From a virus (Duplodnaviria > Caudoviricetes): a DNA stretch of 38,407 bases. Made by a program: the position numbers and the translations under genes. The number at the start of each line of letters is the position of its first letter. Within the stretch, counting starts at the first letter, position 1. Shown one piece after another: positions 8,573 through 28,564 of the stretch. Below the pieces are notes generated by a model that was not told the DNA's origin, searched no databases, and saw only the letters and a program-made list of their open reading frames with translations. Location of the stretch: positions 1 through 38,407 of IMG/VR virus record IMGVR_UViG_3300031578_000150. One strand, 5' to 3'.

Positions 8573-8723
8573 ACCGGTCGAAGCTGACGCGCGCATCGGC
8601 AGTGGGGCCGGGATAAAGGCAACGCGATAGACAGCGGCGAGCCTCCAGAACTCGCCATGCCGGGTGGCTCCGGCTGAATGCAGGTGCGACACCTGCCGCC
8701 GTAACCAAACTTTAGGAGGAAAG

Positions 8724-8903: not shown

Positions 8904-8998
8904 GTTCTCATGGCGGCCAGTCCGTAGGGATACAAAACCTCCGGTCTGGGTTTAGGGGCGGGCTGGCCGTCGCCCATTAAAAACGGAAGAGAGGAAAG

Positions 8999-9250: not shown

Positions 9251-9313
9251 GCGGTAAGCAAGGCTGGATGCCGAAGGCACCTGCTACCGCATGGAGAGCT
9301 TCGGCCGCCTAAT

Positions 9314-9338
9314 AAAAGCCCCATTCCGGGGCTTTTTT
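9314..9338 (+). terminator. Rho-independent terminator (possibly bidirectional)
   Basis: AAAAGCCCC-ATTCC-GGGGCTTTTTT. Confidence 0.85.
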
Positions 9339-9351
9339 GATACCGCGCCCT

Positions 9352-9386
9352 AATTAAATTGACAGATTTTCGATTTCCGTTAAACT
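9352..9386 (+). promoter_or_regulatory. Conserved 35-bp promoter, copy 1 (portal operon)
   Basis: AATTAAATTGACAGATTTTCGATTTCCGTTAAACT contains TTGACA-16 nt-TAAACT; identical to 24966-25000. Confidence 0.85.
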
Positions 9387-9393
9387 CGAACGC

Positions 9394-9654
9394 ATGGATG
9401 GTGCCGAAGAGCCAAGGGCAAAAAGATGGGACTACTATACGCTGGTGCGTTGTCCCGAGTGCGGTTCCGCCCTTACTGAGTTAGTCGCAGGGGCGGTTCG
9501 TTGTCTATGCCGGCGGTGCAACGCCCGGTACAAAGTGGTTCTCGTTAAAGACGGGGACTACTTACCCAGGCACCTCAAAGAGCAGATGGAAGCCGAGCTT
9601 CGGGATGCCCCGGGGGAAGGTGAGCGCGAGCAGGACGCGGCCGAACCAGCGTAA
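9394..9654 (+). CDS. Com-like zinc-ribbon protein
   Basis: VRCPECGSAL...VRCLCRRCN resembles the Mu Com-family spacing; first gene after the promoter. Confidence 0.6.
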   Translation: MDGAEEPRAKRWDYYTLVRCPECGSALTELVAGAVRCLCRRCNARYKVVLVKDGDYLPRHLKEQMEAELRDAPGEGEREQDAAEPA

Positions 9655-12026: not shown

Positions 12027-12692
12027 ATGCCATTAAGAGATAAGACGGGGCCTGGCGGAGCCGGCCCAAAAACCGGAATGGGCGCCGGTGGGTGCTCACC
12101 GGAAGAGGATGAGGTCGAAAAGAGCCTTGCCATCAAAAAGCTCTACCGGGACGCGGGCTTCACGCCGCCGAAGGGGAAGGGTATCCACACGGAGAAGTTC
12201 CACCGCTGCGTCGTGGACGTGAAAAAGAAAATCCGCGATGGGAAGATGGGGGAGGGTTCAGACCCCTACGCCATCTGTATGAACAGCCTCGGGGCGGCGG
12301 GCGCGGTCAAGCCCGAGCACCAGCGGAGCAAGGTGGCGAAGGCTCTGGTCGCGGATTCCATGACAGTCCGTGGGCGCCGGTCGGTACGGCAATCGAGAAT
12401 TGACATGCTCTTGGCAGGACTAGCAGAACGGATGAAGACCCTCCGGGATGAGCGGGACTACTACATCGCGGAGATTTACGGATACGCCGATGCCATGAAG
12501 CGCGGCGACTGGCAGAACAAGTACGCGCTCAAGCTCATCGAACACGCGAACGAACTGGCGACCATCCTTGACGAGATGGCGACCAACGAGGCCCGGCAGA
12601 CCGAACTCCGGGCGGAGCTTCAGTTGCAGTCGTTGAGAGATAAAGTTTCACCACCTACCATCGGCGAGGTCGAGGCCAAGGAAGGGCCATAG
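12027..12692 (+). CDS. Modular hypothetical protein: DUF5320-like N-terminal motif, Cys-pair domain, coiled coil
   Basis: MPLRDKTGPGGAGPKTGMGAGGC; KFHRCV...DPYAIC; segments are separated by VEKS and VAKA. Confidence 0.75.
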   Translation: MPLRDKTGPGGAGPKTGMGAGGCSPEEDEVEKSLAIKKLYRDAGFTPPKGKGIHTEKFHRCVVDVKKKIRDGKMGEGSDPYAICMNSLGAAGAVKPEHQRSKVAKALVADSMTVRGRRSVRQSRIDMLLAGLAERMKTLRDERDYYIAEIYGYADAMKRGDWQNKYALKLIEHANELATILDEMATNEARQTELRAELQLQSLRDKVSPPTIGEVEAKEGP

Positions 12693-12731: not shown

Positions 12732-13127
12732 ATGCCTCAAGAACGAGTAAGGGCACACCGTCGTCGAACGTCCGGCGGGAAAGTCTCGCAGGTAAAGGAA
12801 CACGCAAGGCGAGGGCGGCCAAAGAAAAATGAAGGCATCGCTGCCCGTCAGTCGGTGGGCGCTTTACTAAGCGCCCGTTACCCTACCACCTATGATGAAC
12901 ACAACGGGAAATGGTACGTGGGGGGGACCGTACCTTTTACGGCCCGTTTCCTTTACGACGGACAGTTAATTACTGACGAGAACATTGAAGAGGCGGCCAA
13001 GCGATACGCTTACGAGCGCACGGGGCAACCTGGCATGAAACGGCGCATAACCCCAAGACCCTATAAAACAAAAGCGGAGGCCCAAGCGACTGTTGCCACC
13101 GCCTACGAAGAGGCGGAAAGGGGATAA
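12732..13127 (+). CDS. Putative head-cargo protein 1 with N-terminal basic tag
   Basis: RBS AAGGAGG; starts MPQERVRAHRRRTSGGKVSQVKEHARR. Confidence 0.8.
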   Translation: MPQERVRAHRRRTSGGKVSQVKEHARRGRPKKNEGIAARQSVGALLSARYPTTYDEHNGKWYVGGTVPFTARFLYDGQLITDENIEEAAKRYAYERTGQPGMKRRITPRPYKTKAEAQATVATAYEEAERG

Positions 13128-13129
13128 GA

Positions 13130-13588
13130 ATGCCACGGGGACGAGTACGGTCACACACACGCCGGACGGCCAAGGGTAAGGTCTCCAGCGTGCGCGAGCA
13201 TGGGCGGAAGGTAAAGCCGGAACAGGCAGGAAGACCGACAACCCCAAAAGCGCGCGGAAACATCGAGGATGAGACGATGGTTCTTCCATACGCCTGCGCC
13301 GATGGTGTTCTCCACGAGGTCGAGGTTTATCTGCAAAAAAAGGGCTTAGGGGACAAGTTCGGGAAGAAGCTCCAAGAGGAATTGGGGGCATATCTTGAAG
13401 ACCACGCCCAACGTAGCTACAAATCCGAATCCAACACGCGATGGGCGAAGGAATTAAAAGGGGAAAGCGGTCCGGCAATCCTTCGCCAGTTCATGCGGCA
13501 TTGGCTTTCTGGTGAGCTTGGTCGAAAGCACCCGGAAATCCTACGGGCTCTCCCCGAGGGATTCAAGAACGGCGAGTCCATACTTTAG
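13130..13588 (+). CDS. Putative head-cargo protein 2 with N-terminal basic tag
   Basis: Starts MPRGRVRSHTRRTAKGKVSSVREHGRK. Confidence 0.8.
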   Translation: MPRGRVRSHTRRTAKGKVSSVREHGRKVKPEQAGRPTTPKARGNIEDETMVLPYACADGVLHEVEVYLQKKGLGDKFGKKLQEELGAYLEDHAQRSYKSESNTRWAKELKGESGPAILRQFMRHWLSGELGRKHPEILRALPEGFKNGESIL

Positions 13589-13594
13589 GAGCCC

Positions 13595-14368
13595 ATGCCT
13601 GACGACTCGAAAGCCGCGATTGCCAAGGAATACGGCGCGACCTCTTTAGAGGCGATGCTGCACGATGGGCGGACGCCTTACCTCCACATGGAGCGCCAGG
13701 TTCCGCTCGAATCACCCATCAGTATCCGCCAGTTCCGGCGGGAGTGGTTCGCGGCAGTTAAGCTACTTCTGGGAAAGAGCCTTAAACCGCAAGACCTGGG
13801 CGTTGATGCTACCGGGGCTCGGTCATATTGGGCGAGGGTTGAGAGCGGAATTACAAACCTTGATGAAAGAAAATGGGGATACCGTCTCAAAGTTTCAAGG
13901 CTTGCTCTGCTTGCCCCAGCCGTAAATCGAATTGAGATAATTGCTCACGAAGCGGCTCACCTGCTTGATTATTACAACAAATATGTAAGCAAGGGCAAGC
14001 TCCCTAGCCGTGGGGACATTATAATTTCTGCGAGGTTTGATTTTATTGACCACGGCGATGACTGGCAGGCCATTTACAAGCGATTCTACAAAAAGCTGAA
14101 AGCCGCCCACATCGTCGAGGCCGATTCCGACTACGAAAAACACGCCGCACTACTTCTGGAGAAACGCCGCCAAGCCTGGGCCGACCCGGAATGGCAGGAT
14201 GGTTACAAGGCCAGAATCAAGGACGGTCATGCGAGGGCGGCGAAGAAGAGGCACCCGGCCAAGGCTAAACCGACATCCACTGGCCGGGTGAAAGCACACC
14301 ACCGGCGGACGGAAAAGGGGAAGTCGGTCGCGGTCCACGGATACCGGCGCAAACCACGGAGGGATTAG
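13595..14368 (+). CDS. SprT-like zincin metallopeptidase with C-terminal basic tag (cargo 3)
   Basis: IIAHEAAHL (HExxH) and downstream HGDDW; ends GRVKAHHRRTEKGKSVAVHGYRRKPRRD. Confidence 0.8.
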   Translation: MPDDSKAAIAKEYGATSLEAMLHDGRTPYLHMERQVPLESPISIRQFRREWFAAVKLLLGKSLKPQDLGVDATGARSYWARVESGITNLDERKWGYRLKVSRLALLAPAVNRIEIIAHEAAHLLDYYNKYVSKGKLPSRGDIIISARFDFIDHGDDWQAIYKRFYKKLKAAHIVEADSDYEKHAALLLEKRRQAWADPEWQDGYKARIKDGHARAAKKRHPAKAKPTSTGRVKAHHRRTEKGKSVAVHGYRRKPRRD

Positions 14369-14369
14369 G

Positions 14370-14855
14370 ATGGGAACCACACGGCGTAAAGCCCACGTCC
14401 GCCGGACGAAGGGTGGGAAGGTCGAGCAAGTCAGGGAACACCAACTACGTTTTCAGGAAAAGATAAAGGGTGGGACTGCGGGTGGCCGCAACTTGTCGCT
14501 GAATGAGGCCGGAGTTGACCAGATGAGGGGGACTATGGAAACCTTTGCGCGCTTACGAACCATTAACAATGACCACGCAATCATGGCCGCCCTACTCAAT
14601 AAGCACCAAGCGTGGGCCGAGTTTTTTACCGCATTTGGTGGGTTCCAAAGTCTTAGTGGCCTTAAAGACTCATGTGCGGCCCCCCTCTGCCCGTTCAAGG
14701 GGGGCGTTTACAAGCGGACACTCGCTGAACCCCCATCAGCCGAGCGGACCGCCATTCTTGCAGAACTAATTTTCAACGCTTATATGGCCCGACTCGTAAT
14801 TGGCTGGATGGGTTGGACAGACATCCCCGACTGTGGCGTCATCCCAAACAAATAA
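14370..14855 (+). CDS. Putative head-cargo protein 4 with N-terminal basic tag
   Basis: Starts MGTTRRKAHVRRTKGGKVEQVREHQLR. Confidence 0.8.
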   Translation: MGTTRRKAHVRRTKGGKVEQVREHQLRFQEKIKGGTAGGRNLSLNEAGVDQMRGTMETFARLRTINNDHAIMAALLNKHQAWAEFFTAFGGFQSLSGLKDSCAAPLCPFKGGVYKRTLAEPPSAERTAILAELIFNAYMARLVIGWMGWTDIPDCGVIPNK

Positions 14856-16030
14856 TGAAGCTCCAAATCACAGCACCGCCCGAGGTTGAACGCGCCGCGT
14901 TGAGCGCCGCGTTGGTCGAGGCCGCCGAACTTTTGGATGCGGAGGCTTTCCAGAAGGCCCTTGACGGCGAGACCGGCCAGCGCGAGAGCAACATCTGGCT
15001 GCCGAACCCCGAACCGCTCATCTCATTCTGCGAGGAGACTTGGTACAACGAGGTCAACGGATGGCTGGAGCGCATCTTCGAGGAGGCGAGCCAGATGCTC
15101 CTCGGAGAACCGCTGCGGCTGCAAAAGGCGATTGACGAATCCTACCTGGAAAGTTTGGAAAAGCTCATCGCCTTCCACTTCGGCAAGGCGAAGCGGAGCG
15201 CGGAGGCGGCGGTCGTCCGGGCGCACATCTCCGGCCTGTTCCGCGCGGCTGAGGGAGAGGAAAAGGGTGCCGTCCCGGACTTCGGCAAGCCGACCTCGTG
15301 GCCCGAGACCGTTCAGGAACTCGCTCGCATCATCCGTAAAAAGGACACCTGGCATGGGAAGGAAAGTTTCAGTCGGCTCCAGGTCGCGGCCGACCTCGCC
15401 GCCGACGAAATCACTGGCATCAGTGAGGACGCCCGGGCGGGGATGCGAAAACTTATCTACCAGGCCGAATTGAATCAGTGGGGGCCGAACCTTCTGGAAC
15501 GGGAGCTTTACCACAACTTCGGGGCCTTGCAGCGGGATTGGCGACGCATCGCACTCACCGAAACGGCCATGAATAGCAATAATGCGTATCTTCTTCGGGT
15601 CGGTGAAGGCGGATACGTGACATGCCCCCAAGTCGCCGGCGCCTGCCGCTGGTGCGCGGCGAACCTCGAACACAAGGTCTTCCGGGTCGTGACCGACGCG
15701 ATGGCCGACGACCACATCGAGGGCGACCATTACGCGGAGCGGGCCGTCTGGGTCGGCAAGACGAACGTGGGGCGCTACCTCTCGGCTCGGGAGCGGGGCG
15801 GCCGAATGAGAGAAGCGGATGAACTGTGGTGGCCGTGTTGCCCTGGGCACCCGCACTGCCGGCACGTATTCATTAAACACAACCCCATGTACGGGCCGCC
15901 CGGGCCGAGGCTGCCGATGAGCGAGGCCGAGATTATGGCATCCCCGAACAAGCCGAGTTGGCTGATTGGAATTGACGTAACGCCGGATTCCGAACGCGGG
16001 GCCGAGAGCCCGCAGACCGTAGGGGTTTAA
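14855..16030 (+). CDS. Minor head / head morphogenesis protein (SPP1 gp7 / Mu gpF-like)
   Basis: ATG in a TAATG overlap; RDWRRIALTET, ACRWC and GHPHCR motifs. Confidence 0.85.
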   Translation: MKLQITAPPEVERAALSAALVEAAELLDAEAFQKALDGETGQRESNIWLPNPEPLISFCEETWYNEVNGWLERIFEEASQMLLGEPLRLQKAIDESYLESLEKLIAFHFGKAKRSAEAAVVRAHISGLFRAAEGEEKGAVPDFGKPTSWPETVQELARIIRKKDTWHGKESFSRLQVAADLAADEITGISEDARAGMRKLIYQAELNQWGPNLLERELYHNFGALQRDWRRIALTETAMNSNNAYLLRVGEGGYVTCPQVAGACRWCAANLEHKVFRVVTDAMADDHIEGDHYAERAVWVGKTNVGRYLSARERGGRMREADELWWPCCPGHPHCRHVFIKHNPMYGPPGPRLPMSEAEIMASPNKPSWLIGIDVTPDSERGAESPQTVGV

Positions 16031-16031
16031 G

Positions 16032-16367
16032 ATGGGAACCACGAGGCGTCGGTCTCACGTCCGCCGGACCAAGACCGGTAAAATCGAACGTGTCCGGGAG
16101 CATCAACTAAATACGGGAGATAAAGAACCTTATCAGATGACGCGAAAAGAGTATGAAAACGCATTCGGAACAACGAGGACAAATGTAACAGTTACTGGCG
16201 GTTTTTCTCGCCATAAAGAGCAAGTAATGGAAGCTCTAAACAGAGGATTAACGGTTCCAGATAGAGTATTAAACGACTACCCGGAACTAAAAGAGTATGC
16301 TGAGAAATTAAAAATAAGGAATGAAGCGATTGCAAAATACCGAAATAAGCAGAGGATGAGCCGATGA
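16032..16367 (+). CDS. Putative head-cargo protein 5 with N-terminal basic tag
   Basis: Starts MGTTRRRSHVRRTKTGKIERVREHQLN; AT-rich payload PYQMTRKEY...HKEQVMEALNRGLTVPDRVLNDYPEL. Confidence 0.8.
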   Translation: MGTTRRRSHVRRTKTGKIERVREHQLNTGDKEPYQMTRKEYENAFGTTRTNVTVTGGFSRHKEQVMEALNRGLTVPDRVLNDYPELKEYAEKLKIRNEAIAKYRNKQRMSR

Positions 16368-19300
16368 TTCAGTTCTACGCAGAGTTGGAAATCAAAGGCC
16401 GGACCGAGCCGACGGTGCTCTGGATGTTCGAGGGGGAGGAAATCCGAGCCCTCACCTATCCGGTGCTGGCGTCCCGGCCCATCTGGAAGTCCATCTGCGA
16501 AAGTTTGGACGCCCAGGGCACCTCGCACGCCCGGTTCACGAAGGCGCTCTTCTCATCGCTCAGGGATGAACTGCGAAGCAAGGCGTTCAAGGCGGTCACG
16601 GCAGAAGAGGGCGAGCGGTGGATTACCGTTCACCCGGGCGGCGACCCCAGCGCCACAGGCGTCCACGTCCTGATAAAGCAGCGCAAGGACGGGTCATACT
16701 CGGTCATCGGCGGTGCCGGAGGCAAGCTCAACCACCTCCGGTTGACCTCGATTAAGTCGCCGGAGGAGTACCGGGAGACGGCGAAGACCAAGGCCAAGCA
16801 ACAGGCCGAGGAACGGAAAAAGAAGCTCGCGGAGATGACCCCGGCGGAGCGCGAAGCCTTCGACATTCGCATGGGTGAGCACGTCCAGCATATCCAAACA
16901 GCCGAGAAAAACCTGCGGGAGAAGGCCAAGGAGGTCTTCGAGCGGAGCGGTCTGGAAGCGCCGGAGGCGGAAAAAATCTCAATCTCTGCGGCCCTTCAGA
17001 ATCAATGGAAAAAGGAAGCTAAGGAGAAGGGCATCAAAGGCGAGCGTGATGTTGAGGCGTATGCCAATCAAAAGGAAAATGAGAAGGTCAAGGACATCCG
17101 AAAAGAGGCGCGGAAGGACCGGGAACTGGCAGTAGAGGCCGCCCGCGACGTGCTTGCCGAGAAGATGGGAACGGACAGGGCGGCGGACATCTTCGGGGAC
17201 ACAAAAAACCTCCAGGACCGGATTGCCGCCGCCTTGAGCCCCGAGGACGAGGAGAAGCGTCAGGCGCTCCGGGACACCTTCGATAAAGACCCGGAACTGG
17301 CCGAGGAGTTATACAGGCTTGAGCTTGAGCGCCGGAGGCTGAAGTCCGCGAAGACCCGCGAGGAGAAGTCAGCCGAGAACGTCATGGAGGGGACCAGCAT
17401 CGGGGCCTGGGACGTGCCGGCAACCGAACTCACCCGTGAGCAGGTTCAGCAGCTCGCCTTGGAGGAAGCGGAGGAGGAAGCCAGTGTAAACGTCAACCGC
17501 GCCCTGATTGCAGAATCCGAGGGCGAGGGCGCGCTTCACACCCGTTCCCAACGCAAGCTGGCGTCCTACATGATGAATGGTGCCTCCGAGGGTGTCCATG
17601 CCATCACCGCGAAGTACGCGGGCGGCCAGATACTTGACGAGGATTCCATCCGGGCTCTCGGGCTCCAGAACTCCGCGCTATTCGCAGCTCATTACCTGGA
17701 ACGCGAGGGACGCTCTGAGACGGCCCAGGAGGGCCTAACGGAGTTTGCAATGGGTGAGGCCAAGGTGAGGGCGAAAAAGGCGCTCTCGAAGGCACAGGAG
17801 TACGCCAGAATTGCCGCAGATTTCAGGCGGCAGTCCAAGGGTCCGACCGCGATGACGGAGGCTCGTCGGGGGTCGGGTTACGCTGCCGGGCAGATAAACA
17901 AGGGCATCCGTATCTTGGGCAACGCCTTGGGGAGTCTGGAGGCGATGGCGAGCGTCAACTGGGCGCTCACGAACAAGAAAATCCCGGAGAGCGTTGTAAT
18001 CCAGTATGCCAGCCGTGAAAACCTGAAACGGAAGCTGCGGATGCTCGGGCTCAAGCCGGATGACGTGCTCATAAAAGACCCGACCACCGTTTCGGGCGAG
18101 TTCGAGATTCCGCGCGCACAGTGGGACAAGGTTTACCGCTACCGTTCACAGAGTGCTCTTGACCCTGAAGTCCAGGCCATCAAGAAGGGCGAGCGGAACG
18201 TCGAGGGGTGGAGGCCGGCCGGGATAAAGGACTTCATCAAGGACGACAACGGCAATCTTCGCAAGGTCGAACTCTTCCCGGAGCAGCAGTCCGGCATCCG
18301 GTTCGCCCTGAAACAGAAGCGGGCCTTCCTAAACTTTGAGGCCGGCCTTGGCAAAACACTGACGGCGCTGGGGACAATCGCCGAGGGAATCAGCACGAAG
18401 AAGTTTGAGCGCGCCTTGGTCGTCATGCCAGCATCCGTCCAGGCGCAGTTTGCGGACGAGGTGCGGAAGTTCAGTGACCTCAATGTCTCCTACGTGGGCG
18501 AGAAGGGTTCGGCCAAGGGATTCGACTGGGGCGATAAAAACAACCAAATCGTCATCACCTCACGGGACAAGCTCGCGCCCTACAAGGATAAGATTGACGC
18601 CGCAGGGTTCAAATGCGTCGTCCTGGACGAAGCCCACTTGGTCAAGCAGCGTATCGGCGCCGAAAAGTCGGCCATGAGTGATGCGTATGCCGACTTGGCC
18701 GCGAAACCGGAGTACCTGCTGGAAATGACCGGTACGCCGGTTCCGAACGACCTGAGCGAACTGTGGTATCACCTCAACATCCTTGACCCGGCCAAGTTCC
18801 CGGACAAAAGTGAGTTCATGTCGCAGTTCGGCAGGACGCCGACCTCGGGCTCCATCATGCGAGAGGAGAGCGCCGCCGCCTTGCGGGCCTACATTGACGA
18901 CCGGGTTTACACCGAGAAGATGGGGCCGGAGAAACTGGAAGGCTATCAGAAACTGGAAAAGGAAGTCGAGGTCGAGCCGACCGACGAGCAGAAGGCACTT
19001 TACAGGAAGTCCGAGGACATCTACGCCCCGGGCATGTCCACGAGAAAGAAGGCAGGCTGGGCTTTCGCCCGGGATGCCGCGAACAGTGCGGCACTTTATA
19101 AGGCACCGGCCAAGGAAAATGCCGTAACGCAGGCCCTCGGCGACCAGTGGGAAGCCCACATCAAAGAGCGGGAGGCCAAGGGCCAGAACCCGAAAATCAT
19201 CATTTTCACCGACCACTACGACACCATGAAGCCCATCATGGACATGCTGAAGGAGCGGTTTGGTTATGGCAAGGCCAACATCTTGACGAATAAAAGGGGC

Positions 19301-19597
19301 CAGACGCCGAAGGCCACGCGCACGCTCGCGCAGAAGTTCAACAAGGACAAAAGCGCCAGGGTGCTCATCGCCACCTCGATGATGGGAACGGGGCTCAACA
19401 TGCAGGGGGCCACGGCGGTTTGCTTCTACCACGAGAGCCAGACGGCATCCGACGAGATTCAGAAGTGGCACCGCGCCTACCGGAAAAACGTCAAGCATGA
19501 TGTGGACGTAATTAGACTCCACGCCAAGGCGCCATCGGCCGTGATGGCTCGACAGCGCCTTGAGACGAAACAGGCCACGCACGAGATGGTTGGGTAA
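16364..19597 (+). CDS. Large SWI2/SNF2-family helicase-like protein (polyvalent/DarB-like virion protein candidate)
   Basis: Motif I FEAGLGKT, Ia VVMPAS, II VLDEAH, III MTGTPVPN, IV IIIFT, V GTGLNMQ, divergent VI QKWHRAYR; ~600-aa helical N-terminal region. Confidence 0.9.
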   Translation: MIQFYAELEIKGRTEPTVLWMFEGEEIRALTYPVLASRPIWKSICESLDAQGTSHARFTKALFSSLRDELRSKAFKAVTAEEGERWITVHPGGDPSATGVHVLIKQRKDGSYSVIGGAGGKLNHLRLTSIKSPEEYRETAKTKAKQQAEERKKKLAEMTPAEREAFDIRMGEHVQHIQTAEKNLREKAKEVFERSGLEAPEAEKISISAALQNQWKKEAKEKGIKGERDVEAYANQKENEKVKDIRKEARKDRELAVEAARDVLAEKMGTDRAADIFGDTKNLQDRIAAALSPEDEEKRQALRDTFDKDPELAEELYRLELERRRLKSAKTREEKSAENVMEGTSIGAWDVPATELTREQVQQLALEEAEEEASVNVNRALIAESEGEGALHTRSQRKLASYMMNGASEGVHAITAKYAGGQILDEDSIRALGLQNSALFAAHYLEREGRSETAQEGLTEFAMGEAKVRAKKALSKAQEYARIAADFRRQSKGPTAMTEARRGSGYAAGQINKGIRILGNALGSLEAMASVNWALTNKKIPESVVIQYASRENLKRKLRMLGLKPDDVLIKDPTTVSGEFEIPRAQWDKVYRYRSQSALDPEVQAIKKGERNVEGWRPAGIKDFIKDDNGNLRKVELFPEQQSGIRFALKQKRAFLNFEAGLGKTLTALGTIAEGISTKKFERALVVMPASVQAQFADEVRKFSDLNVSYVGEKGSAKGFDWGDKNNQIVITSRDKLAPYKDKIDAAGFKCVVLDEAHLVKQRIGAEKSAMSDAYADLAAKPEYLLEMTGTPVPNDLSELWYHLNILDPAKFPDKSEFMSQFGRTPTSGSIMREESAAALRAYIDDRVYTEKMGPEKLEGYQKLEKEVEVEPTDEQKALYRKSEDIYAPGMSTRKKAGWAFARDAANSAALYKAPAKENAVTQALGDQWEAHIKEREAKGQNPKIIIFTDHYDTMKPIMDMLKERFGYGKANILTNKRGQTPKATRTLAQKFNKDKSARVLIATSMMGTGLNMQGATAVCFYHESQTASDEIQKWHRAYRKNVKHDVDVIRLHAKAPSAVMARQRLETKQATHEMVG

Positions 19598-19600
19598 CGC

Positions 19601-21601
19601 ATGACGCGCGTTAGAACCTACAGGCGCAGAACGAAGAAGGGCGGAACGGCCATCGTGCGTGAGCACGAGCGCAAGGACGACCTTCACGCGAAGCTGGGCG
19701 AAGAGGCCGAGGAGAACCCGAGCCAGCTTCTTTTGACCGAGGCGCCGAAGCCCAAGAGACGGCGTGGGGTCAGTCGCAGACGGCGCCCAACGGAAGCCAA
19801 GGCCCAGGTCAAGGCACAACGGAAGCCCGCCCATGTTCGCCGGACCAGAAAAGTTGCCCCGCCGGTTGAGGCACCCGCGCCGGTAGTTAAAGTTTCGCGC
19901 GGCCGGGACATCTTCGGGAACACGCCGAACCCATACGCTTATGCCGATGCGATGAAGGCATATTACTGGGTGATGGGGCAGGACGAAGCCAGAGATAATT
20001 TCGATATTCTAAAGGAAAAAGGCTCGGACCTTGAATTGAAGGGCAATTCATTTCAAGAAGTTCTGAATAATCTCTCGAATTGGTTTAAGCAAATAGCGGC
20101 AAAAGGCGGTAAGTACGGTGCCTTTGCTGCCAATCTCACAACACAAGAATCCAAGAACCTTTTCGTTTACAAGACGCTGCTAGGTGAGAGGCTTGTTAAT
20201 ACGTTACGTGAATACCAGGGGCAGGGTAAGTTTGTGCTTAAATACGTTCAGGAGGGATTTGCCCAAGGACTAAAGGATGAAAAGTGGAAAAAGAAGAATG
20301 TTAAGAGAATTAACGCCGCCACAAAACGCTTGCAGCGCCGAGTTACAGTCAAAGGCAATTTGACCCAGCGCGCATTAAATAAAATAATTCATTCTGGTAC
20401 GTTCAAGGCTTGGTTCGGCGATTGGGAATCGGCGACTCGAAGCGCATCTCATGTCGTTGACGAAATGAGGAAACCCAAGGAGCAGAGGGAGATTGTCGTG
20501 CCATCTGTGGTTTATCATGGGACACCACAGAAGAAAGGCTTTACTTGGTTCGACCCGGAGAAGGGCAAGTCAGGTAACTTTTTTGGGCCAGGACTCTATT
20601 TTACGTCCGACTTTGAAGTCGCTAAAGGTTACGCGGAGAATTACTTAAAAATAAAGCACTCATCTGGAACACCTAAACCGAGAATAAAATCTTTGCGTGA
20701 CGCAGAAAAGATAAAAGAAATAGCAGCAGAACTAAAAAGGCGAGGTGAAGGCGCGCTTGCGAAAGGTAGAATAGAAAAAAAGGATTTGGATTGGCTTCAG
20801 CTTAGGATAAATGATTTCACCAACGATGCCAAAAAAGACCGTTGGATGGATGAGTTTGGCAATACAAACAGGATATATGCGTTAGCGAGCCAAAAGGTAA
20901 GGGATGCAATAGACATGGAAAACTATTTTATTGCAGAGGGGCAAAAACCATATTTAGGCGCTATTTATACTGTGTTTCTTAACATTCGCAATCCCTATAA
21001 TCTTGACGAAGTTGTGGATGACAAGGAAATTGATGAAATCTTAAAAACTGGCTTGGAGACTGGAAAGGATTACAATGAGTTTTATCTGAAGCACCTCTGG
21101 GATAATGTTACGTCTAAGGGCCTAAAAGAGTTTGAAAAATGGATGATTAGTTCTGGCCGCCGCGATAAAATGATGAATAAATATGGCGTAAGTGAGGGCC
21201 GCGGTGGACTCTCTGATGTGGAAACGGTTCGCAAGGTATGGGAGATATTAAATAAATACTACGAAGGCACCTGGAACCCGGCGGCGGGGAAACATGAGAA
21301 AACTCCATTAAAGCAATTCAAGCCCGGCGGTAAAAGCGGTGTCCTGACCCGCCAGATGCTTTTCCGAATGCTGTCCGACTGGGGAAGCAGCGACCGTGGA
21401 GCAAATCTCTATACGAACTACATCAAGTCGAAAGGCTACGACGGCATCACGCACACCGGCGGTTGGAACATCGGCACGAAGGACCACAAAGTTTGGATAG
21501 CCTTCGAGCCCGAGCAGGTGAAGTCAACCTTGAACGAGGGCACTTTCAACCCGGATGACCCGGATATGTTTAAGGGCGTAAGCCATGCCAGAAGGACTTA
21601 A
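19601..21601 (+). CDS. ADP-ribosyltransferase-like protein (polyvalent-protein ART type) with N-terminal basic tag (cargo 6)
   Basis: FKAWFGDW, VVYHGT, FGPGLYFT, VFLNIRNP, GYDGI, AFEPEQVKS..N.GTF; starts MTRVRTYRRRTKKGGTAIVREHERK. Confidence 0.8.
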   Translation: MTRVRTYRRRTKKGGTAIVREHERKDDLHAKLGEEAEENPSQLLLTEAPKPKRRRGVSRRRRPTEAKAQVKAQRKPAHVRRTRKVAPPVEAPAPVVKVSRGRDIFGNTPNPYAYADAMKAYYWVMGQDEARDNFDILKEKGSDLELKGNSFQEVLNNLSNWFKQIAAKGGKYGAFAANLTTQESKNLFVYKTLLGERLVNTLREYQGQGKFVLKYVQEGFAQGLKDEKWKKKNVKRINAATKRLQRRVTVKGNLTQRALNKIIHSGTFKAWFGDWESATRSASHVVDEMRKPKEQREIVVPSVVYHGTPQKKGFTWFDPEKGKSGNFFGPGLYFTSDFEVAKGYAENYLKIKHSSGTPKPRIKSLRDAEKIKEIAAELKRRGEGALAKGRIEKKDLDWLQLRINDFTNDAKKDRWMDEFGNTNRIYALASQKVRDAIDMENYFIAEGQKPYLGAIYTVFLNIRNPYNLDEVVDDKEIDEILKTGLETGKDYNEFYLKHLWDNVTSKGLKEFEKWMISSGRRDKMMNKYGVSEGRGGLSDVETVRKVWEILNKYYEGTWNPAAGKHEKTPLKQFKPGGKSGVLTRQMLFRMLSDWGSSDRGANLYTNYIKSKGYDGITHTGGWNIGTKDHKVWIAFEPEQVKSTLNEGTFNPDDPDMFKGVSHARRT

Positions 21602-22148
21602 AGAGGCCAAGGCCGAAGACAGACCGGACTTCCCGGCCAAGCTCCGCGACATCCCCGAGGGCCGCGCGCTCGAAGCCGAGTACGCGAAGCTGATGGCGAT
21701 GGGGAAGGAACTCATGCCGGACCTCCAGCGCGAGTACGACGAGCTTGAGGGCGAGATGGAGAAGACCTACGACCTCGCCGATGCCGCCGTGAAAAGGCTC
21801 GCCCAGGGGTTCCAGAAGTTCTACCCCGAGGACCTGGACGGTTTGGACATCCCGTTCGCCGCCTCCATCATCGCCCGGGCGCGCACGAAGCGCAAGAAGT
21901 ACGAGCGGGGCCAGGGTGAAGAGGCCAAGGAGAAGTTCCCGCCCGAGCTGGAAACCCTCGAAGTCAAGGCCCTCAAACTTTGCCGTGATTACCTGAAGGC
22001 TCACGACCTGGCCGGCCGCACGTACAAGGAAATGATGGAACTGAAGCACAACATCAACCCGAATGAGCGGGAGCGGCAGCACATGGAGCGCAGCCGGCGC
22101 CGGATTCGGGGAAAGAAGGAGGCCCAAAGTGGCGAAGGTAAGGCGTAA
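21585..22148 (+). CDS. Hypothetical helical protein (untagged)
   Basis: 187-aa ORF with high-GC3 codon usage, overlapping both neighbours. Confidence 0.75.
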   Translation: MPEGLKEAKAEDRPDFPAKLRDIPEGRALEAEYAKLMAMGKELMPDLQREYDELEGEMEKTYDLADAAVKRLAQGFQKFYPEDLDGLDIPFAASIIARARTKRKKYERGQGEEAKEKFPPELETLEVKALKLCRDYLKAHDLAGRTYKEMMELKHNINPNERERQHMERSRRRIRGKKEAQSGEGKA

Positions 22149-22482
22149 AGCCCATGTCCGCCGGACCAAGGGTGGTAAGGTCGAGAACGTCCGCGAACAT
22201 CAGATGGAGACGCGGCGGTCAAAAACACGGTCGGTAATAGGGGCCGGAATAAGGCACTTGACGACCAAGATACCCTGCGCCGTCTTTAATACGTCAGAGG
22301 AGGCAAGGGCTTACCTAAAAAAAGAAAGCCGAGATGATGGGCTTGAAATAAGGACGCTGCGAACCATCAACGGTGAAAGCCAAATTGAACCAGGTGAGGG
22401 GTTTGCAAGAAGTGACAAGGAAACAGTTCAGTTCGTGGTTATGGCTAAAAGCCCACAGGTGCTATTCGTAAAGGATGAATAG
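22129..22482 (+). CDS. Putative head-cargo protein 7 with N-terminal basic tag
   Basis: GTG at 22129 follows AAGGAGG; starts MAKVRRKAHVRRTKGGKVENVREHQME. Confidence 0.8.
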   Translation: MAKVRRKAHVRRTKGGKVENVREHQMETRRSKTRSVIGAGIRHLTTKIPCAVFNTSEEARAYLKKESRDDGLEIRTLRTINGESQIEPGEGFARSDKETVQFVVMAKSPQVLFVKDE

Positions 22483-22488
22483 GCAAAC

Positions 22489-23700
22489 ATGCCTAAAACC
22501 ACCCGCCACTCTCATGTCAGGCGAACCGCGCGCGGCCGGTCCGTCGCGGTACATCAGCATCTCCTCACGACGAAACGGCACAAGCCGGAGGAGAGGCCGA
22601 CGCCGCAGCTTGGTCTTCTCGAACGCGACCGGGTTCAGCCGCTCAAGGTCAACGACATCGCCCCGGACCCCGACCAGCCGCGCAAAACCTTTGACAAGGA
22701 AGGCATCGAAAGTTTGGCGGAGAGCATCGCCGCCGAAGGGCTCATCCATCCCATCGTGGTTCGGAGCGTCCCCGGTCAGCCGGGCAAGTACCAGATAATC
22801 GCCGGGGAGCGGCGCTGGCGGGCGCATAAATACCTTCAGGACAAGGGCAAGCAGGCCAAGGGCGTCGGCCCGGGCGAGGTGCAGGCCATCGTCCGGGACG
22901 ACCTCAACGAAGACGAGCGGGTGCGGCTGCAATTCATGGAGAACTACGGGCGCACGGAGATGGACGTAATCGAGACCGCCGCCGGCATGTTTCGGATGTA
23001 TTCCACCTTCAAGGGCACGGACGCGGAGAAAATCACCCAGCTCGCCGAGAGCTTGGGTTTTGACCCGGCGAGGAAGCGGTCGGCCCTGGAAAACTACATT
23101 GCCCTCCACACCAAGCTCGACCCGGAGATAAGAGAGCACGCGCGCAAGCTGCTCCATTCCGAAGACCCGGGCACGCGGGAGGTCATCGGCCGGGGCTTGG
23201 ACGCTAAACTTTACGTCATCTCCCGGCTGGACCCGCCAGAGCAAAAGGCACTCTGGAAGATGATACAGACGCGGCAGATGACGATTGGGGAGGTCAAGGC
23301 CCAGGCGGCGCGTTTCAAAGCGGCCCGCGAACAGGGCATGTTCGGGCTCGGCGAAGCCGGTGCCATGAACAAGGCCGAGATTGAGAGGGCCAAGGAGAAC
23401 AAGGGCGCGAACGCCGTCAAACATGAGCGGGATGCGATTGAGCGATTCGAGCGGGAGATGGCCCATTTCTTCGGCGAAGTCATGGACGAAGACGGCGTTG
23501 CGATTCTGCCCGAGGTGACGCGCGGGAAGTGCCGGCCTTTCATTGAACTGATGGATGCGATGCAAAAAGAGGCCCGGCGGGTTTCAACGCTTGCCCGTGT
23601 GACATGCGGCGGAAGCGTAGAAAAGGGAATCCGAAGCCACAGGAGACGCACCCGGAACGGCCGCAGCCTTGAGTTTCATCAAACGGTGAGGTTTCAATGA
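22489..23700 (+). CDS. ParB/Spo0J-like protein with basic tags at both termini (cargo 8)
   Basis: PDPDQPRKTFD..L.ESI...GLIHPIVVR and YQIIAGERRWRA (GxxRxxA), EN..R; N-terminal RHSHVRRTARGRSVAVHQH and C-terminal IRSHRRRTRNGRS. Confidence 0.9.
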   Translation: MPKTTRHSHVRRTARGRSVAVHQHLLTTKRHKPEERPTPQLGLLERDRVQPLKVNDIAPDPDQPRKTFDKEGIESLAESIAAEGLIHPIVVRSVPGQPGKYQIIAGERRWRAHKYLQDKGKQAKGVGPGEVQAIVRDDLNEDERVRLQFMENYGRTEMDVIETAAGMFRMYSTFKGTDAEKITQLAESLGFDPARKRSALENYIALHTKLDPEIREHARKLLHSEDPGTREVIGRGLDAKLYVISRLDPPEQKALWKMIQTRQMTIGEVKAQAARFKAAREQGMFGLGEAGAMNKAEIERAKENKGANAVKHERDAIERFEREMAHFFGEVMDEDGVAILPEVTRGKCRPFIELMDAMQKEARRVSTLARVTCGGSVEKGIRSHRRRTRNGRSLEFHQTVRFQ

Positions 23701-24971
23701 GAGTCAAGGGATACCGCCGGAAGACGAAAAGTGGCAAAACCGCCCAGGTCCGCGAGTTTGAGCGGCGGGGCATGGCCGCGCGCAAAAAGCAGGCCGCAGG
23801 GAAGCGGCCGGCCGGAGCCGAGGGCGGGGGCGGAGGTCAGCCCGACGCGGCCCATTACGTTAAGAAGGCCGCCGGAATGGTGATGAGCGCACTGATTCAT
23901 CAGGGCCTGAAGAAGACGGCGAATGGCTGGGCCGGGTTCGAGAAGATTGACTACCGGAAGGCCGCCAGAAAAATCAAGGCGAGGGCCAAGGGCATGACCC
24001 CGGATGACCCGCGCTTCCAAGCTGTCCAGCGTGTCCTGAAGGACCTCAAGGCACTGAATGACCGCTACGGTGACGGGCGCGGCCTGAAGGAACCGGCGCC
24101 GCCGCCGGTGCAGGCCCCTCCCCAGCAGGGGGGACAACCGGCCGGACAGGTGCCGCCCCAAACCGGCAACGCGGTTCCGCCGATACAGGCGACCAAGGCC
24201 GTTGAGGACGACGAACCGAACAAAGAGGAGGACGTAGGGGAAGAAGAAGAGCCGAGCCAGGAGGAGACCGACGAAGGGGAGCCCGGGAAGCCCCAGGTTG
24301 ACCCCGAGGAGTACGTGAAAGAGTTCCAGGACCATGTTGTCGCTGTCCAGCGGCGCAAGTACGAGAGCTTCGTGTCCCACAAGGCGGAGAAGTTCGGGGA
24401 TAATCTCATCGCGGAAGGCGTCAACGACTACATCATAGCCAAGGCAGACCTGGTATCCGCGCTCTTCTCGGAAGACCCGACGGTCGCCTACATGATACGG
24501 GCGGAATACGACAGGCATGGCGAAAACATCCTGCAACGTGTTCTGTCTCGAATCGGCGCGGTTCCCTACATGGTCGAGCCGATTGCCATGACAATCAAGG
24601 GTGCGAAAGGCCACATCAATGAGGAGGTCGAGGCCGGAGAAGCCAAGGCGCCCGTCGGTCGGCGATACATGTTTTGCCTTGGGTTCAAACCGGAATCGGA
24701 CCTACAGGCCAAGGCGCTCATGCGGGCTCTGGTGCAGGCGGCGAAGGTCGGAACCGGACGTGAGGTAGACGGACAGGCGGCGAAAAAGCCGTTCATCATC
24801 AGCAATGTAATTGATACGCTGCCAGGTGCCGTGAAGCTGAAGATATACGCCCACTCGGTCGGCGGGCAGATGGTGATGAGTGTAAACAAAGGTAAGGAAC
24901 AGGATTGGGACCGCGAGGACGCCGCCCTTGTTTATACCGGTGGCCCACTTTCGGTTGAGAAATCCAATTAA
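23697..24971 (+). CDS. Putative head-cargo protein 9 with N-terminal basic tag, Pro/Gln and acidic linker
   Basis: Starts MRVKGYRRKTKSGKTAQVREFERR; ATGA overlap with the upstream gene. Confidence 0.8.
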   Translation: MRVKGYRRKTKSGKTAQVREFERRGMAARKKQAAGKRPAGAEGGGGGQPDAAHYVKKAAGMVMSALIHQGLKKTANGWAGFEKIDYRKAARKIKARAKGMTPDDPRFQAVQRVLKDLKALNDRYGDGRGLKEPAPPPVQAPPQQGGQPAGQVPPQTGNAVPPIQATKAVEDDEPNKEEDVGEEEEPSQEETDEGEPGKPQVDPEEYVKEFQDHVVAVQRRKYESFVSHKAEKFGDNLIAEGVNDYIIAKADLVSALFSEDPTVAYMIRAEYDRHGENILQRVLSRIGAVPYMVEPIAMTIKGAKGHINEEVEAGEAKAPVGRRYMFCLGFKPESDLQAKALMRALVQAAKVGTGREVDGQAAKKPFIISNVIDTLPGAVKLKIYAHSVGGQMVMSVNKGKEQDWDREDAALVYTGGPLSVEKSN

Positions 24972-25022: not shown

Positions 25023-25817
25023 ATGGAACAGTCCGAGGTCGTAAGATTCGAGCTGAACATCGAAAAGGCCATCGCCGAGGACGGCCAGCGTGTTATTTAT
25101 TTGCACGCGCATACCGAGAAACCGGACCTCCAGGAAGAGACTATCGCCACGAACGCTTTAAGGGAATCGTCCGATTACTTCCTTCAAAACGGCTTCCTTG
25201 ACTACCATCACGCGGGGGAACGCAACAAGGACGTTCCCGACCCGAAGGACATCATCGGATACCCTCTGGAATTAAAGTTCCGGGGGAACGATGCCTACGT
25301 GAGGGCGGTCTTGCACCAGGGCGACAAGCTCGCGGACGACCTCTGGGATGGGCTGCACTGCAATCCACCCAAGCGGTTCAGAGCCTCTATCGCGGGCAAG
25401 CGCATCAAGACCTTCCAGAAGGAGAATGGTGTCTACACTACAAAAATCATCTGGACCTCACTCGCGGTAACTCCAAGTCCGGTAAACTCGGACACAAACA
25501 TTTCAGCCACAGACAGCTTCTCCGCTTTTCTCAAGGCCCTTTCTTCATCTGCGGAAACCGATTTAGCCCAGGTGAAGGGGGGCCAGGCATTGTCCGGTGT
25601 CGAGGAACACGATGAGCCCGCGCGGATTATTGCCAAGGACTGCGGCTCCTGGTGCGACGAGAGCGGCGCATTCAAGAAGGGGCTGCAAAAGAAGGACATC
25701 GTAACTTACGTCACCCGCTACTTAGGTTTGGGTGGTGAGAAGGCCAAATCGGCGTGTAAGACGCTTTGGCTGGCTTACAACCCGACCACAGGCGCGAAAG
25801 GTAGGGATAATGCCTGA
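25023..25817 (+). CDS. Prohead protease (HK97/SPO1-Twort fold)
   Basis: TEKPDLQEE, GFLDYHH, IIGYP, ASIAG (catalytic Ser candidate), LAVTPSPVN; upstream of scaffold and capsid. Confidence 0.88.
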   Translation: MEQSEVVRFELNIEKAIAEDGQRVIYLHAHTEKPDLQEETIATNALRESSDYFLQNGFLDYHHAGERNKDVPDPKDIIGYPLELKFRGNDAYVRAVLHQGDKLADDLWDGLHCNPPKRFRASIAGKRIKTFQKENGVYTTKIIWTSLAVTPSPVNSDTNISATDSFSAFLKALSSSAETDLAQVKGGQALSGVEEHDEPARIIAKDCGSWCDESGAFKKGLQKKDIVTYVTRYLGLGGEKAKSACKTLWLAYNPTTGAKGRDNA

Positions 25818-26583
25818 GAAAAACGACGGTCTCTCGGAGCTCGAGCAGGACTTGTTCAAGAGCCTTGACGAGCTGAACGAGGACATAGACCGCAGCACCG
25901 AGGAGCTTGAGGAGCATCTGGACGACTTCGACCCCGACGGTTTCCTGAAGGGCGTCAGCCATGAGGACACCTGGGGCGAGGGAGACGACGAGGACGAAGA
26001 CTTCGACCTCGGCGAAGAGGGCGAGGGTGAAGAGGAGGAGGAAGAGGAAGAGGGAAAAAAGAAAAAGAAGCGTTCCAAGGTAAAAAAGGAGATGGGTGGT
26101 TGGAATTCCAGTTCGTCAACGGGCGGCATTGCCGAGGCCCGTATGGAAAAGGGTCTCCGGGTCAGGCCCGACCCTCGCCTCAAGAAAATCATGCAGAACC
26201 AAGTCGTCATGGGCCGGCTGCTGAAAAGCCTCTGCGAGACGGTCTCTCCGGGCATGAGGCAGATTGCCAACCTCGCCGACGCACAGGGGCTCAAGCCGAG
26301 AGGGGGGCAAGATACCGGCCGAATCGGCGGGCAGGTTAATCCCCCCACCGGTTTGCCCGAGGAAATTACGAAGGCCATTGTCGAGGTCTCCTTCATCGGC
26401 GACGACAAGCAACGCGAGGCGGCCATTGACCAAGCCTTCGCCAAGGGCCTGTTGCCTGCTGGCCTGACGGACCTCGGGGCCTCCGCCCTCTACCGTGAGG
26501 ACAAGGCTGAGTTCGTTAAAACCGTTGCTCCCGTACTCGTCCAGATGCACCGCGATGCCAAAGGGCAAGCGGACCCGAAGTAG
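25810..26583 (+). CDS. Scaffold-like acidic protein
   Basis: Lies between protease and MCP; long D/E run followed by KKKKKR; many hydrophobic-x-K-[SAG] sites. Confidence 0.7.
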   Translation: MPEKNDGLSELEQDLFKSLDELNEDIDRSTEELEEHLDDFDPDGFLKGVSHEDTWGEGDDEDEDFDLGEEGEGEEEEEEEEGKKKKKRSKVKKEMGGWNSSSSTGGIAEARMEKGLRVRPDPRLKKIMQNQVVMGRLLKSLCETVSPGMRQIANLADAQGLKPRGGQDTGRIGGQVNPPTGLPEEITKAIVEVSFIGDDKQREAAIDQAFAKGLLPAGLTDLGASALYREDKAEFVKTVAPVLVQMHRDAKGQADPK

Positions 26584-28117: not shown

Positions 28118-28564
28118 ATGACAAGGTTAAGGGTCCGAAACAAGAAGCCGGACGAAACGACGCTCGTTACCTACAAAGAGGAAGGGGCTGAGAAACAGTA
28201 TCTCGTCACCTTCGAGGCAAGCGATGAACCCGGCATCTGCACGGTATCCGTGCCCGAGGTCGTGGCTTGTGCGCTTCTTCAGGGTTCGCTCTACACACGG
28301 ATGGAACAAACACAGAAGGGCGCAAAGCCACAGGAAGGCAAGGGACCAAAGGTTGCTGGTGCCAAAGTGGAGGGCGGGGTCGAGGACGAATTGACCCAAC
28401 TTCACGGTGTAGGCCCGAAAATCGCTCAGAAGCTACGCGACGCCGGGTTCTGTTCCATAGCGGAACTGGCGGAGGCCCAAGTGAACGTGCTGGTTCAAGA
28501 CTGCGACCTGAGCGAAACTTTCGCGGAAAAACTGGTCGCAACCGCAAAGGAAATGCTGTCATAG
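28118..28564 (+). CDS. Protein with C-terminal helix-hairpin-helix domain
   Basis: LTQLHGVGPKIAQKLRDAGF.SI.ELA.A. Confidence 0.8.
   Translation: MTRLRVRNKKPDETTLVTYKEEGAEKQYLVTFEASDEPGICTVSVPEVVACALLQGSLYTRMEQTQKGAKPQEGKGPKVAGAKVEGGVEDELTQLHGVGPKIAQKLRDAGFCSIAELAEAQVNVLVQDCDLSETFAEKLVATAKEMLS

Follow-up and report, generated by a model that had tools for sequence, protein, structure and literature searches.

In bacteriophage T4, the internal proteins IPI-III and Alt carry a capsid-targeting sequence that is cut by gp21, and this signal is a removed propeptide of 10-19 residues (PMC9026906). Cargo of the polyvalent type has likewise been described as head-packaged (PMC5512222, PMC9503650). 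How proteins are chosen for packing and injection in phages other than T4 is largely open.

Here we analyzed a stretch of viral DNA of 38,407 nucleotides (hereafter the window), for which a preliminary description had proposed that unrelated proteins share a short terminal tag acting as a capsid address label. As described there, ten tag copies are located in nine genes between the portal and prohead protease genes, eight being N-terminal and two C-terminal. All are on the + strand, and the head is of the SPO1 type. In the lists below, a K site is a predicted prohead-protease site of the pattern Phi-x-K↓[SAG], which was defined after inspecting these proteins.

12747..12809, + strand: tag copy 1, N-terminal (gene 12732-13127, 131 aa, body of no assigned family)
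13145..13207, + strand: tag copy 2, N-terminal (gene 13130-13588, 152 aa, body of no assigned family; orthologues P0021 and P0032 tagged too)
14288..14350, + strand: tag copy 3, C-terminal (gene 13595-14368, 257 aa, HExxH; C-terminal tag kept in orthologue P0038)
14385..14447, + strand: tag copy 4, N-terminal (gene 14370-14855, 161 aa)
16047..16109, + strand: tag copy 5, N-terminal (gene 16032-16367, 111 aa, body 39% GC)
19610..19672, + strand: tag copy 6, N-terminal (gene 19601-21601, 666 aa, ART-PolyVal PF18760)
19823..19849, + strand: half copy, first strand only, within the ART gene
21575..21598, + strand: half copy, first strand only, at the ART C-terminus directly after a predicted K↓G site
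22144..22206, + strand: tag copy 7, N-terminal (gene 22129-22482, 117 aa, GTG start)
22504..22566, + strand: tag copy 8, N-terminal (gene 22489-23700, 403 aa, ParB PF02195)
23629..23691, + strand: tag copy 9, a degenerate C-terminal copy in the same ParB protein, preceded by a predicted K↓G site
23703..23765, + strand: tag copy 10, N-terminal (gene 23697-24971, 424 aa, body of no assigned family; predicted K↓S site at its end)

The pattern [HY]xR[RK]TxxG[KRG] gives 10 six-frame matches in the window compared to a mean of 0.04 and a maximum of 1 in 100 triplet shuffles. A broader 51-row profile recovers nine of the ten copies, the one missed being the degenerate ParB C-terminal copy, of which orthologue P0037 keeps the K↓G site and a tag remnant. 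In agreement with the preliminary description, motif and profile searches find no copy outside 12732-24971, an absence limited to these 38 kb since the record is a fragment that is about 24% complete. DNA identity between copies ranges from 29 to 80% and identical residues use varying codons; the tag is therefore conserved at the protein level, and a DNA repeat or RNA element is ruled out. Judged by its sequence, the tag is a very basic portable peptide of about 21 residues with invariant R, T, G and V plus a His/Tyr pair, and ribbon-bearing proteins have a net charge of +6 to +10 over their first 30 residues. Pfam offers nothing usable for it (NUMOD4 at E 0.058 in 2/10 copies), nor does NCBIfam (ribosomal L34e at E 0.048 and RPE5, each in 1/51), while the two rows from PDB sequences are partial (E 0.46 and 0.99), ESM Atlas gives no feature match, and phrog_10678, a PHROG of unassigned function, overlaps the motif in two proteins. 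A literature search retrieved neither a description of the motif nor a paper on fHe-Yen8-01, and the available portions of PMC3601020 and PMC9503643 hold nothing further on the tag question.

The bodies of the nine tagged proteins are mutually unrelated, the best of 36 pairwise comparisons having E 0.010, as had been noted from the sequence, with at most one recognised domain per tagged window gene. The earlier domain calls stand for the ART-like domain (PF18760) and for ParB (PF02195), whereas the zincin call for the HExxH protein (gene 13595) stays a motif-only assignment with no family match. Close relatives hold the tag in its gene slot while exchanging the body. At the copy-4 slot, an unrelated body follows the same tag (24/26 aa) in relative L165, and at the copy-5 slot two other bodies stand behind the same tag (in L162/L166 and in L164). 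Tag and body are thereby shown, at the level of sequence, to be exchanged independently. Sequence identity in same-slot pairs ends directly after the tag, and with a GC content as low as 39%, compared to 55-63% for core genes, the bodies look recently acquired. These two features would also suit late intracellular DNA-binding proteins that are not packaged at all, the tag aiming enzymes at replicating phage or host DNA and its DNA serving as the crossover point for body swaps. We regard this as improbable, given that even same-slot pairs differ at 15/78 tag bases and that the cargo types match those described as head-packaged (PMC5512222, PMC9503650).

The expectation that the tag would be fused to diverse domains was borne out in relatives, in which it is kept through cargo swaps and accompanies polyvalent-type cargo (LPD1, InPase, ART, SNF2, ParB and methylase), partly in multi-domain polypeptides (P0007, P0068, P0072 and P0074). 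The likeness to polyvalent proteins (Iyer et al. 2017, PMC5512222; PMC9503650) lies in ART-PolyVal, SNF2, ParB and HExxH, with LPD1, InPase and methylase in relatives, and in the MuF and portal context with predicted co-injection. Characteristic domains are present in the window (PF18760, PF00176 and PF02195; zincin by motif only) and are encoded among head genes (portal, MuF). In contrast, the window modules are separate single-cargo genes, the 2-15 disparate domains per polypeptide of polyvalent proteins being found in relatives and not in the window, and the text available from PMC5512222 and PMC9503650 names no common hairpin or inter-module Lys site.

Five genes within the interval are untagged, namely 11723, 12027, 14855 (MuF-like), 16364 (SNF2) and 21585; four of them are listed with the neighbouring head genes.

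9726..11603, + strand: portal protein (phrog_12, PF04860; net charge -23, two predicted K sites)
12027..12692, + strand: 221-aa protein without the tag, containing two predicted K sites
14855..16030, + strand: MuF-like minor head protein, untagged (net -14, two predicted K sites)
16364..19597, + strand: SNF2 helicase, untagged (PF00176; predicted K sites near the N-terminus)
21585..22148, + strand: untagged 187-aa protein overlapping the ART end, of no assigned family
25023..25817, + strand: prohead protease (phrog_1028)
25810..26583, + strand: probable scaffold on the basis of its position, a net charge of -23 and six predicted K sites (matching no family)
26634..28052, + strand: major capsid protein of the SPO1 gp6.1 type (phrog_752; 9vel_C at E 5e-27; predicted K↓A site at residue 28)

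The 12027 protein contains a small basic domain (about aa 34-100) common to Bacteroides-type tag-bearing phages, and the MuF-like 14855 protein, with no match in Pfam, matches a protein of Morganella phage Mecenats66 annotated 'putative minor head protein' (E 1e-12).

SPO1-type prohead proteases are taken here to cut after Lys; a literature search returned no passage on Lys-specific SPO1-type proteases. The K-site pattern occurs 23 times in the window head proteins versus 6.5 after shuffling (0/2000), as compared to 5 versus 4.5 in the rest of the window, and the motif aligns with its counterpart in SPO1 gp6.1. A C-terminal K site is present in 3/9 tagged proteins (0.22 expected, 10/5000). Of the 156 eligible copies among relatives in other phages, 65 follow a Phi-x-K↓[SAG] site at a spacing of exactly 5 residues, against a per-position background of 0.7%, and ParB follows such a site-plus-tag inside polyproteins in 3/6 non-orthologue matches. 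In leaderless copies the His/Tyr falls at residue 5-12; the N-terminal copies of the window phage are of this form, with a predicted K site in the first 50 residues in 0/8. Lying past the predicted cut, the tag would not be lost from the cargo at maturation and is likely retained. Five small tagged window proteins have no predicted protease site, as proteins that are never packaged would, but in SPN3US many head proteins go uncleaved (PMC10052503), and the relatives' tag stands at a fixed spacing from a motif confined to head proteins.

These results bear on the proposed likeness to T4. As with the T4 internal proteins and Alt, unrelated basic proteins of a myophage have a common short terminal peptide, ART is among the cargo, and head-protease sites are predicted, also at C-termini as in Alt; furthermore, the very basic tagged proteins of Bacteroides-type phages resemble the basic internal proteins of T4 (PMC9026906). 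Unlike the T4 signal, the window tag is basic, predicted to be folded and past the predicted cut, it can be N-terminal, C-terminal or an insert, and it also occurs outside phages. An arrangement of N-terminal propeptide followed by prohead-protease site was not found, two copies being C-terminal and the site preceding the tag in relatives. A dedicated T4-type capsid address label, as had been suggested, is not supported, the tag probably being retained and serving two unrelated head types.

Profile searches agree with the anticipated link to head modules. In 55 of 70 tag-bearing viral contigs, the tag has a same-strand head gene no more than 10 kb away, although 40 of the 55 represent one redundant clade; 7 more are tail-completion inserts. 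Scatter outside head modules, which had been named as evidence against a packaging tag, is observed in part, in tail-completion proteins, in secreted-type bacterial proteins and as solo ORFs of 33-38 residues. The tag is found with SPO1-type (phrog_752) and Bacteroides-type (phrog_1357) heads. In the latter no protease was recognised, and the tagged proteins are strongly basic, their net charges running from +9 to +62. A small-terminase assignment for Bacteroides-type genes before TerL was dropped (lengths of 111 to 461 aa, no family matches). Cultured Bacteroides phage BS162P1, with tagged genes WAX08793 and WAX08794, has the same leaderless form and was the only match when cultured phages were searched with the tag by tblastn. 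In six cultured phages with SPO1-type heads the long-form profile had no match; they have the short form or none. Aeromonas phage ST4 is an example of a cultured SPO1-type-head phage with the short form. In a cultured phage record, one of the proteins that the depositors labelled as particle-associated begins with a short sister hairpin; the label is a liberal one, covering 52/136 genes of that record, primase and terminase included. Viral-contig queries with the protease and capsid returned the window's own phage and one weak match.

The two head types also bear on whether the hairpin is a specific address, docking in a defined scaffold, portal, MuF or inner-capsid site and loading cargo as the T4 signal does with the gp22 core. 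The leaderless window genes have no other common addressing feature, the invariant residues and His/Tyr pair suggest shape recognition, and the tag is positioned strictly among head genes. However, one tag serves heads with unrelated capsid families, it is present where scaffold does not exist, its ribbon length varies within one protein family, and it would persist after maturation, unlike the T4 signal; we consider such docking unlikely.

Among cellular copies, 17/31 genome loci encode secreted-type proteins, 50/99 short-variant copies follow a signal-like stretch, and some copies are C-terminal to SH3, Excalibur or YARHG domains. An Arg-rich hairpin that binds cell-envelope polyanions, or aids inner-membrane crossing of ejected cargo, would account for these associations, including the tag on secreted bacterial proteins. 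We nevertheless deem it very improbable, as the tiny solo ORFs and the tail-completion insert are without signal peptide, and secreted proteins may equally bind extracellular DNA. On secreted-type bacterial proteins, DNA is not the obvious ligand.

The portable basic beta-hairpin of the preliminary description is backed by modelling, in that the homologous insert in a tail-completion protein is predicted as a hairpin with pLDDT 88-89; a good model was obtained only within this protein, a single-sequence tandem-repeat model reaching pLDDT 49. The predicted hairpin has one bulge per strand, with V-[KR]-x-[HY]-x-R flanking the T-x-x-G-K turn on both sides, giving a ribbon of predicted two-fold symmetry. 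The insert-bearing hosts are tail-completion proteins by phrog_26 and PF05069 profile, and the model matches 9mu2_P at Z 7.7 (the tool's bar being 8; rmsd 3.8, 107/109 aligned, next row 3.1), while sequence alignment to 80alpha gp51 alone is not significant (probability 0.25%). The insert directly follows the residue aligned with R87 of gp51, which touches the DNA end (10.1101/2024.12.10.627806). In the tag subfamily the insert adjoins the loop capping the DNA end in gp51 (PDB 9mu2), itself without insert. In T5, the tail-completion protein is located at the tip of the tail and not where the DNA ends (10.1101/2024.10.16.618446).

No solved structure containing the hairpin was found. By eye, the tag shares its register, two bulged strands round a turn, with the HU/IHF arm, but it is without the helical dimer body, its turn is one residue shorter and the tip Pro is mostly absent. 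The hhalign probability is 2.4%, a score reached by 7/200 and 1/200 column shuffles; Foldseek rows for the double-bulged ribbon are weak (4dky_B at E 1.9, 1p51_A at E 3.6), PF00216 has no match on the tagged window proteins or 97 relatives, and none of the eight VIA rows reaching Z 2 is HU, a result that speaks neither for nor against the likeness. Homology to the HU arm is unsupported, the profile similarity not being significant, and we use the arm as an analogy only.

Overall, we lean towards a generic basic beta-ribbon that grips polyanions, first the acidic prohead core and then DNA, and thereby holds cargo in the head for co-ejection. The tagged genes form part of the head operon, with tag and body traded separately, as the slot comparisons show, and the tag is predicted to fold as a double-bulged hairpin. 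During prohead assembly, charge attraction may let the ribbon co-assemble with the acidic core (scaffold and portal, -23 each; MuF, -14); upon cleavage of the scaffold at Lys sites by the prohead protease, it would pass to the incoming DNA, and the cargo (ART, ParB, the HExxH protein and others) would be ejected and act early in the host. In relatives, the modules are joined in polyproteins and would be freed by a cut just ahead of each ribbon, whereas in the window phage they are separate genes starting where the relatives' cut would fall. Since the tag serves two unrelated head types, a universal ligand is favoured, and comparison across all tag contexts suggests DNA as the best-fitting ligand among scaffold, portal and DNA. 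The portal passes naked DNA, and DNA binding alone therefore cannot account for cargo entry. A broader reading, which we find doubtful, is an unnamed superfamily of free-standing DNA-gripping beta-ribbons in phages, bacteria, archaea and a giant virus, alone sufficient for loading any protein into unrelated heads and for its delivery; if true, the leaderless slot-swapping genes would be natural proof that a protease leader is unneeded.

The window phage splits the protease site from the hairpin, and which part is the address is therefore directly testable. With the 21-residue marker, probable injected anti-defence and takeover proteins can be picked out from hypothetical genes by sequence, tag positions mark the points at which polyvalent proteins would be split into modules, and the tag could serve as a handle for protein loading into capsids.

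A frameshift fusing the ART half copy with gene 21585 was dropped, the second strand being absent downstream, and the GTG start of gene 22129 is accompanied by a ribosome-binding site.

The tag, a basic peptide of about 21 residues, follows the motif V-[KR]-x-[HY]-x-R-[RK]-T-x-x-G-K-x-x-x-V-[RK]-x-H, in which the first strand is repeated in the second, and is conserved as protein, not as DNA. As the preliminary description stated, ten copies are present in nine genes; six-frame translation of the window gave 10 matches to the tag pattern, against 0.04 expected (100 shuffles). Likewise, no copy was found outside 12732-24971 in this 38-kb window, a whole virus record of 38,407 bases that is about 24% complete. 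Five genes within the interval lack the tag, and the ART gene (19601-21601) holds two half copies. The protein parts behind the tag (bodies) are unrelated, as had been claimed, the best E value among 36 pairs being 0.010. The surrounding features are as follows.

25-666 and 1569-1958: before the terminase gene, a fragment of a DNA methyltransferase and a Lar-like restriction-alleviation gene
In the window: terminase, by family match
5437-9654: terminase-portal gap, about 4 kb of small genes without assigned function, one HAD-like, none tagged
9726: portal
25023: prohead protease
25810: probable scaffold
26634: major capsid protein (phrog_752)
28118-28564: helix-hairpin-helix protein (PF14520), directly 3' of the capsid gene
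In the window: tail sheath, by family match

SPO1 gp6.1 is a homologue of this capsid protein (9vel, E 5e-27), which shares 26-32% identity with its counterparts in 25 listed cultured myophages.

Four other close relatives of the window phage were found, their MuF-like minor head protein (14855..16030 in the window) being 85-97% identical. In the gene position after MuF, the window encodes a body of 111 aa, L162 and L166 a common body of 385-389 aa and L164 one of 210 aa; these three body types lack significant similarity to one another, whereas the tags of this set (L162, L166, L164) share 24, 20 and 19 of 26 residues with the window tag. In the position before MuF, the L165 gene has a body of unrelated sequence, with 24 of the 26 tag residues unchanged. 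The GC content of bodies in these two slots is 39-55%, compared to 55-63% for core genes. Since relatives keep the tag in the same slot while the body differs, the tag is a portable module, and this slot swapping is our strongest direct result.

A profile built from the ten window copies and searched against 1.84 billion representatives matched 101 proteins, four of them the window's own, and two DNA patterns retrieved 17 and 99 viral loci. Counting 77 flanked contigs, from which the window's own phage and 18 loci spanning only 648 bases were excluded, we found a tag copy of at least 18 bits in 70. In 55 of the 70, a head gene is found no more than 10 kb away, in every case on the same strand; in seven the tag is an insert in tail-completion proteins, in one the capsid gene is 22 kb away, and seven are unplaced, including a giant-virus bin. 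The copy in that bin lies in a small basic ORF (L081, 9962-10252, minus strand). Heads related to those of the window or its cultured relatives account for 15 of the 55; here the tag lies downstream of the portal gene, in the neighbourhood of MuF and SNF2. The remaining 40 belong to a single redundant clade resembling Bacteroides phage BS162P1 (capsid family phrog_1357; no protease recognised), whose tagged proteins are leaderless, very basic and placed beside terminase, capsid and neck genes. Among 97 scanned relatives, cargo includes LPD1, InPase, ART, SNF2, ParB, methylase, zeta-type and SAM-lyase domains, and most have no Pfam match. The expected link of such a profile to head genes and diverse domains was thus borne out, but not exclusively, as tail-completion, secreted and solo contexts also occur.

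Classed by reading ORFs, 31 cellular-genome loci comprise five signal-peptide proteins with tandem copies, 12 with a single copy at the C-terminus (most of them Bacteroidota proteins of secreted type, a few also containing SH3, Excalibur or YARHG domains), four solo ORFs, three tail-completion inserts, six phage-type polyproteins and one unplaced locus. Small signal-peptide proteins make up 14 of the 101 representatives (15 were flagged, one being a polyprotein). Armatimonadota-type small proteins (L117, L124, L135, L138, L145; P0010, P0016, P0048, P0080) contain nothing beyond a signal peptide and 2-4 hairpins in tandem, and gave no family match; the solo ORFs (L118, L123, L127, L131; 33-38 aa) contain the hairpin only, one of them in an archaeal bin.

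A short form, four residues less, is commoner than the long one: 120 viral loci yielded 99 distinct copies, 50 of them behind a signal-like stretch, 10 behind a Lys site and 33 at the C-terminus. Because the long-versus-short profile score was reached by only 3 of 200 shuffles, ribbon length differs among tail-completion orthologues and L219 bears both forms in tandem, the two look like one family. Such secreted contexts would also suit an envelope or entry handle, a reading that we hold to be very improbable. Separately, 32 of the 99 copies (L175-L294) belong to a signal-peptide family on viral contigs with a downstream N-x-N-P-x-T-G motif.

SPO1-type prohead proteases probably cut after Lys, a specificity for which no statement was found in the literature searched. 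The motif Phi-x-K|[ASG]-Phi, a pattern written after inspecting the same proteins, occurs 23 times in 18 head-region proteins against 6.5 expected (0 of 2000 shuffles), compared to 5 against 4.5 in 30 other window proteins. The scaffold accounts for six of these sites; another, close to the N-terminus of the capsid protein, is matched by an aligned copy of the motif in SPO1 gp6.1. We read the motif as a predicted prohead protease site. Among 165 tag copies, such a site precedes 75 (in three of these the start Met serves as hydrophobic residue); 37 are N-terminal without a leader, 16 C-terminal and 37 other. As the site precedes the tag at one exact spacing in 65 of 156 eligible copies, the tag would, if the predicted cut occurs, stand at the start of the mature module and not be lost.

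The tagged window genes begin where this cut would fall, and three of the nine proteins end in a predicted site (10 of 5000 shuffles), two of these sites then carrying a tag remnant. ParB (22489-23700 in the window) comes after site-plus-tag within polyproteins in three of six non-orthologue matches. We infer a polyprotein split into genes, or the reverse direction. In P0004, P0033 and P0092 the tag is preceded by LxE|A-like, L|S and L|A candidate cut motifs instead of K|S, which suggests that the hairpin pairs with proteases whose specificity differs.

Among five cultured phages, four (fHe-Yen8-01, ST4, phiT5282EW, Mecenats66) have cargo that begins with the short form after K|A, and in PHB04 it heads cargo twice, once directly. 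The fHe-Yen8-01 NUDIX protein bearing it is labelled particle-associated in GenBank, but the label is a liberal one, given to 52 of 136 genes there.

An AlphaFold2 model (108 sequences) of an insert-bearing tail-completion protein predicts strands at 117-122, 125-128, 134-137 and 140-145 (pLDDT 88-89 for residues 121-140), which form a hairpin with one bulge per strand. The protein aligns with 80alpha gp51 (9mu2_P, Z 7.7, rmsd 3.8, 107/109 residues; next row 3.1). In a sequence alignment that is not significant alone, Y102/V105/K111, just after which the insert begins, pair with gp51 Y78/F81/R87, described as capping the DNA end and holding its last phosphate (10.1101/2024.12.10.627806). It counts against generalising from this that the T5 tail-completion protein is located at the tail tip (10.1101/2024.10.16.618446). 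That of SPP1 is reported to route DNA to the cytoplasm (PMC11099176). HU arms gave weak Foldseek rows and a register like the tag by eye; profile similarity between tag and HU arm was not significant.

Because the tag is found with two head types that are unrelated, in a neck-lumen protein, as solo peptides and on secreted proteins, its ligand is more likely a polyanion than a scaffold pocket. A specific address, for which the head linkage could speak, is accordingly unlikely, and we therefore prefer, at somewhat better than even chances, a retained DNA-gripping ribbon. It would load by charge on the acidic prohead core and pass from there to DNA. That tagged products are late DNA-binding proteins left outside the particle appears quite unlikely to us. 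The copies, their portability, their surroundings and the site counts are observed and the fold is predicted, while binding, cutting, loading and ejection are inferences.

Tagged cargo would work much as in the T4 internal-protein system. However, the T4 targeting sequence is a 10-19-residue propeptide that is removed (PMC9026906), whereas the tag is predicted to stay on, so the T4-like capsid label first proposed does not fit. Uncleaved head cargo has a precedent in SPN3US (PMC10052503), and the cargo belongs to the domain world of polyvalent proteins, the available text on which names no such hairpin (PMC5512222, PMC9503650). No Pfam, NCBIfam, PDB or Atlas family covering the tag was found, nor a description of the motif in the literature searched, which covered few subscription papers. 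The locus adds tagged genes without a leader, the exchange of cargo within fixed slots, and contexts pointing to DNA over a private address.

Two further modules were observed. A small basic domain (12027-12692, about aa 34-100) also occurs in Bacteroides-type phages (L116 18582-18917; L056, L022, L027), there between capsid and neck genes; it is a second module without annotation that the two tag-bearing clades share. In the SNF2 helicase (16364-19597), residues about 80-135 carry a predicted K|A site followed by another conserved short motif (WITVHP..G); this region, which has 56-57% identity to its equivalents in the cultured phages PHB04 and Mecenats66, is probably a second kind of leader module.
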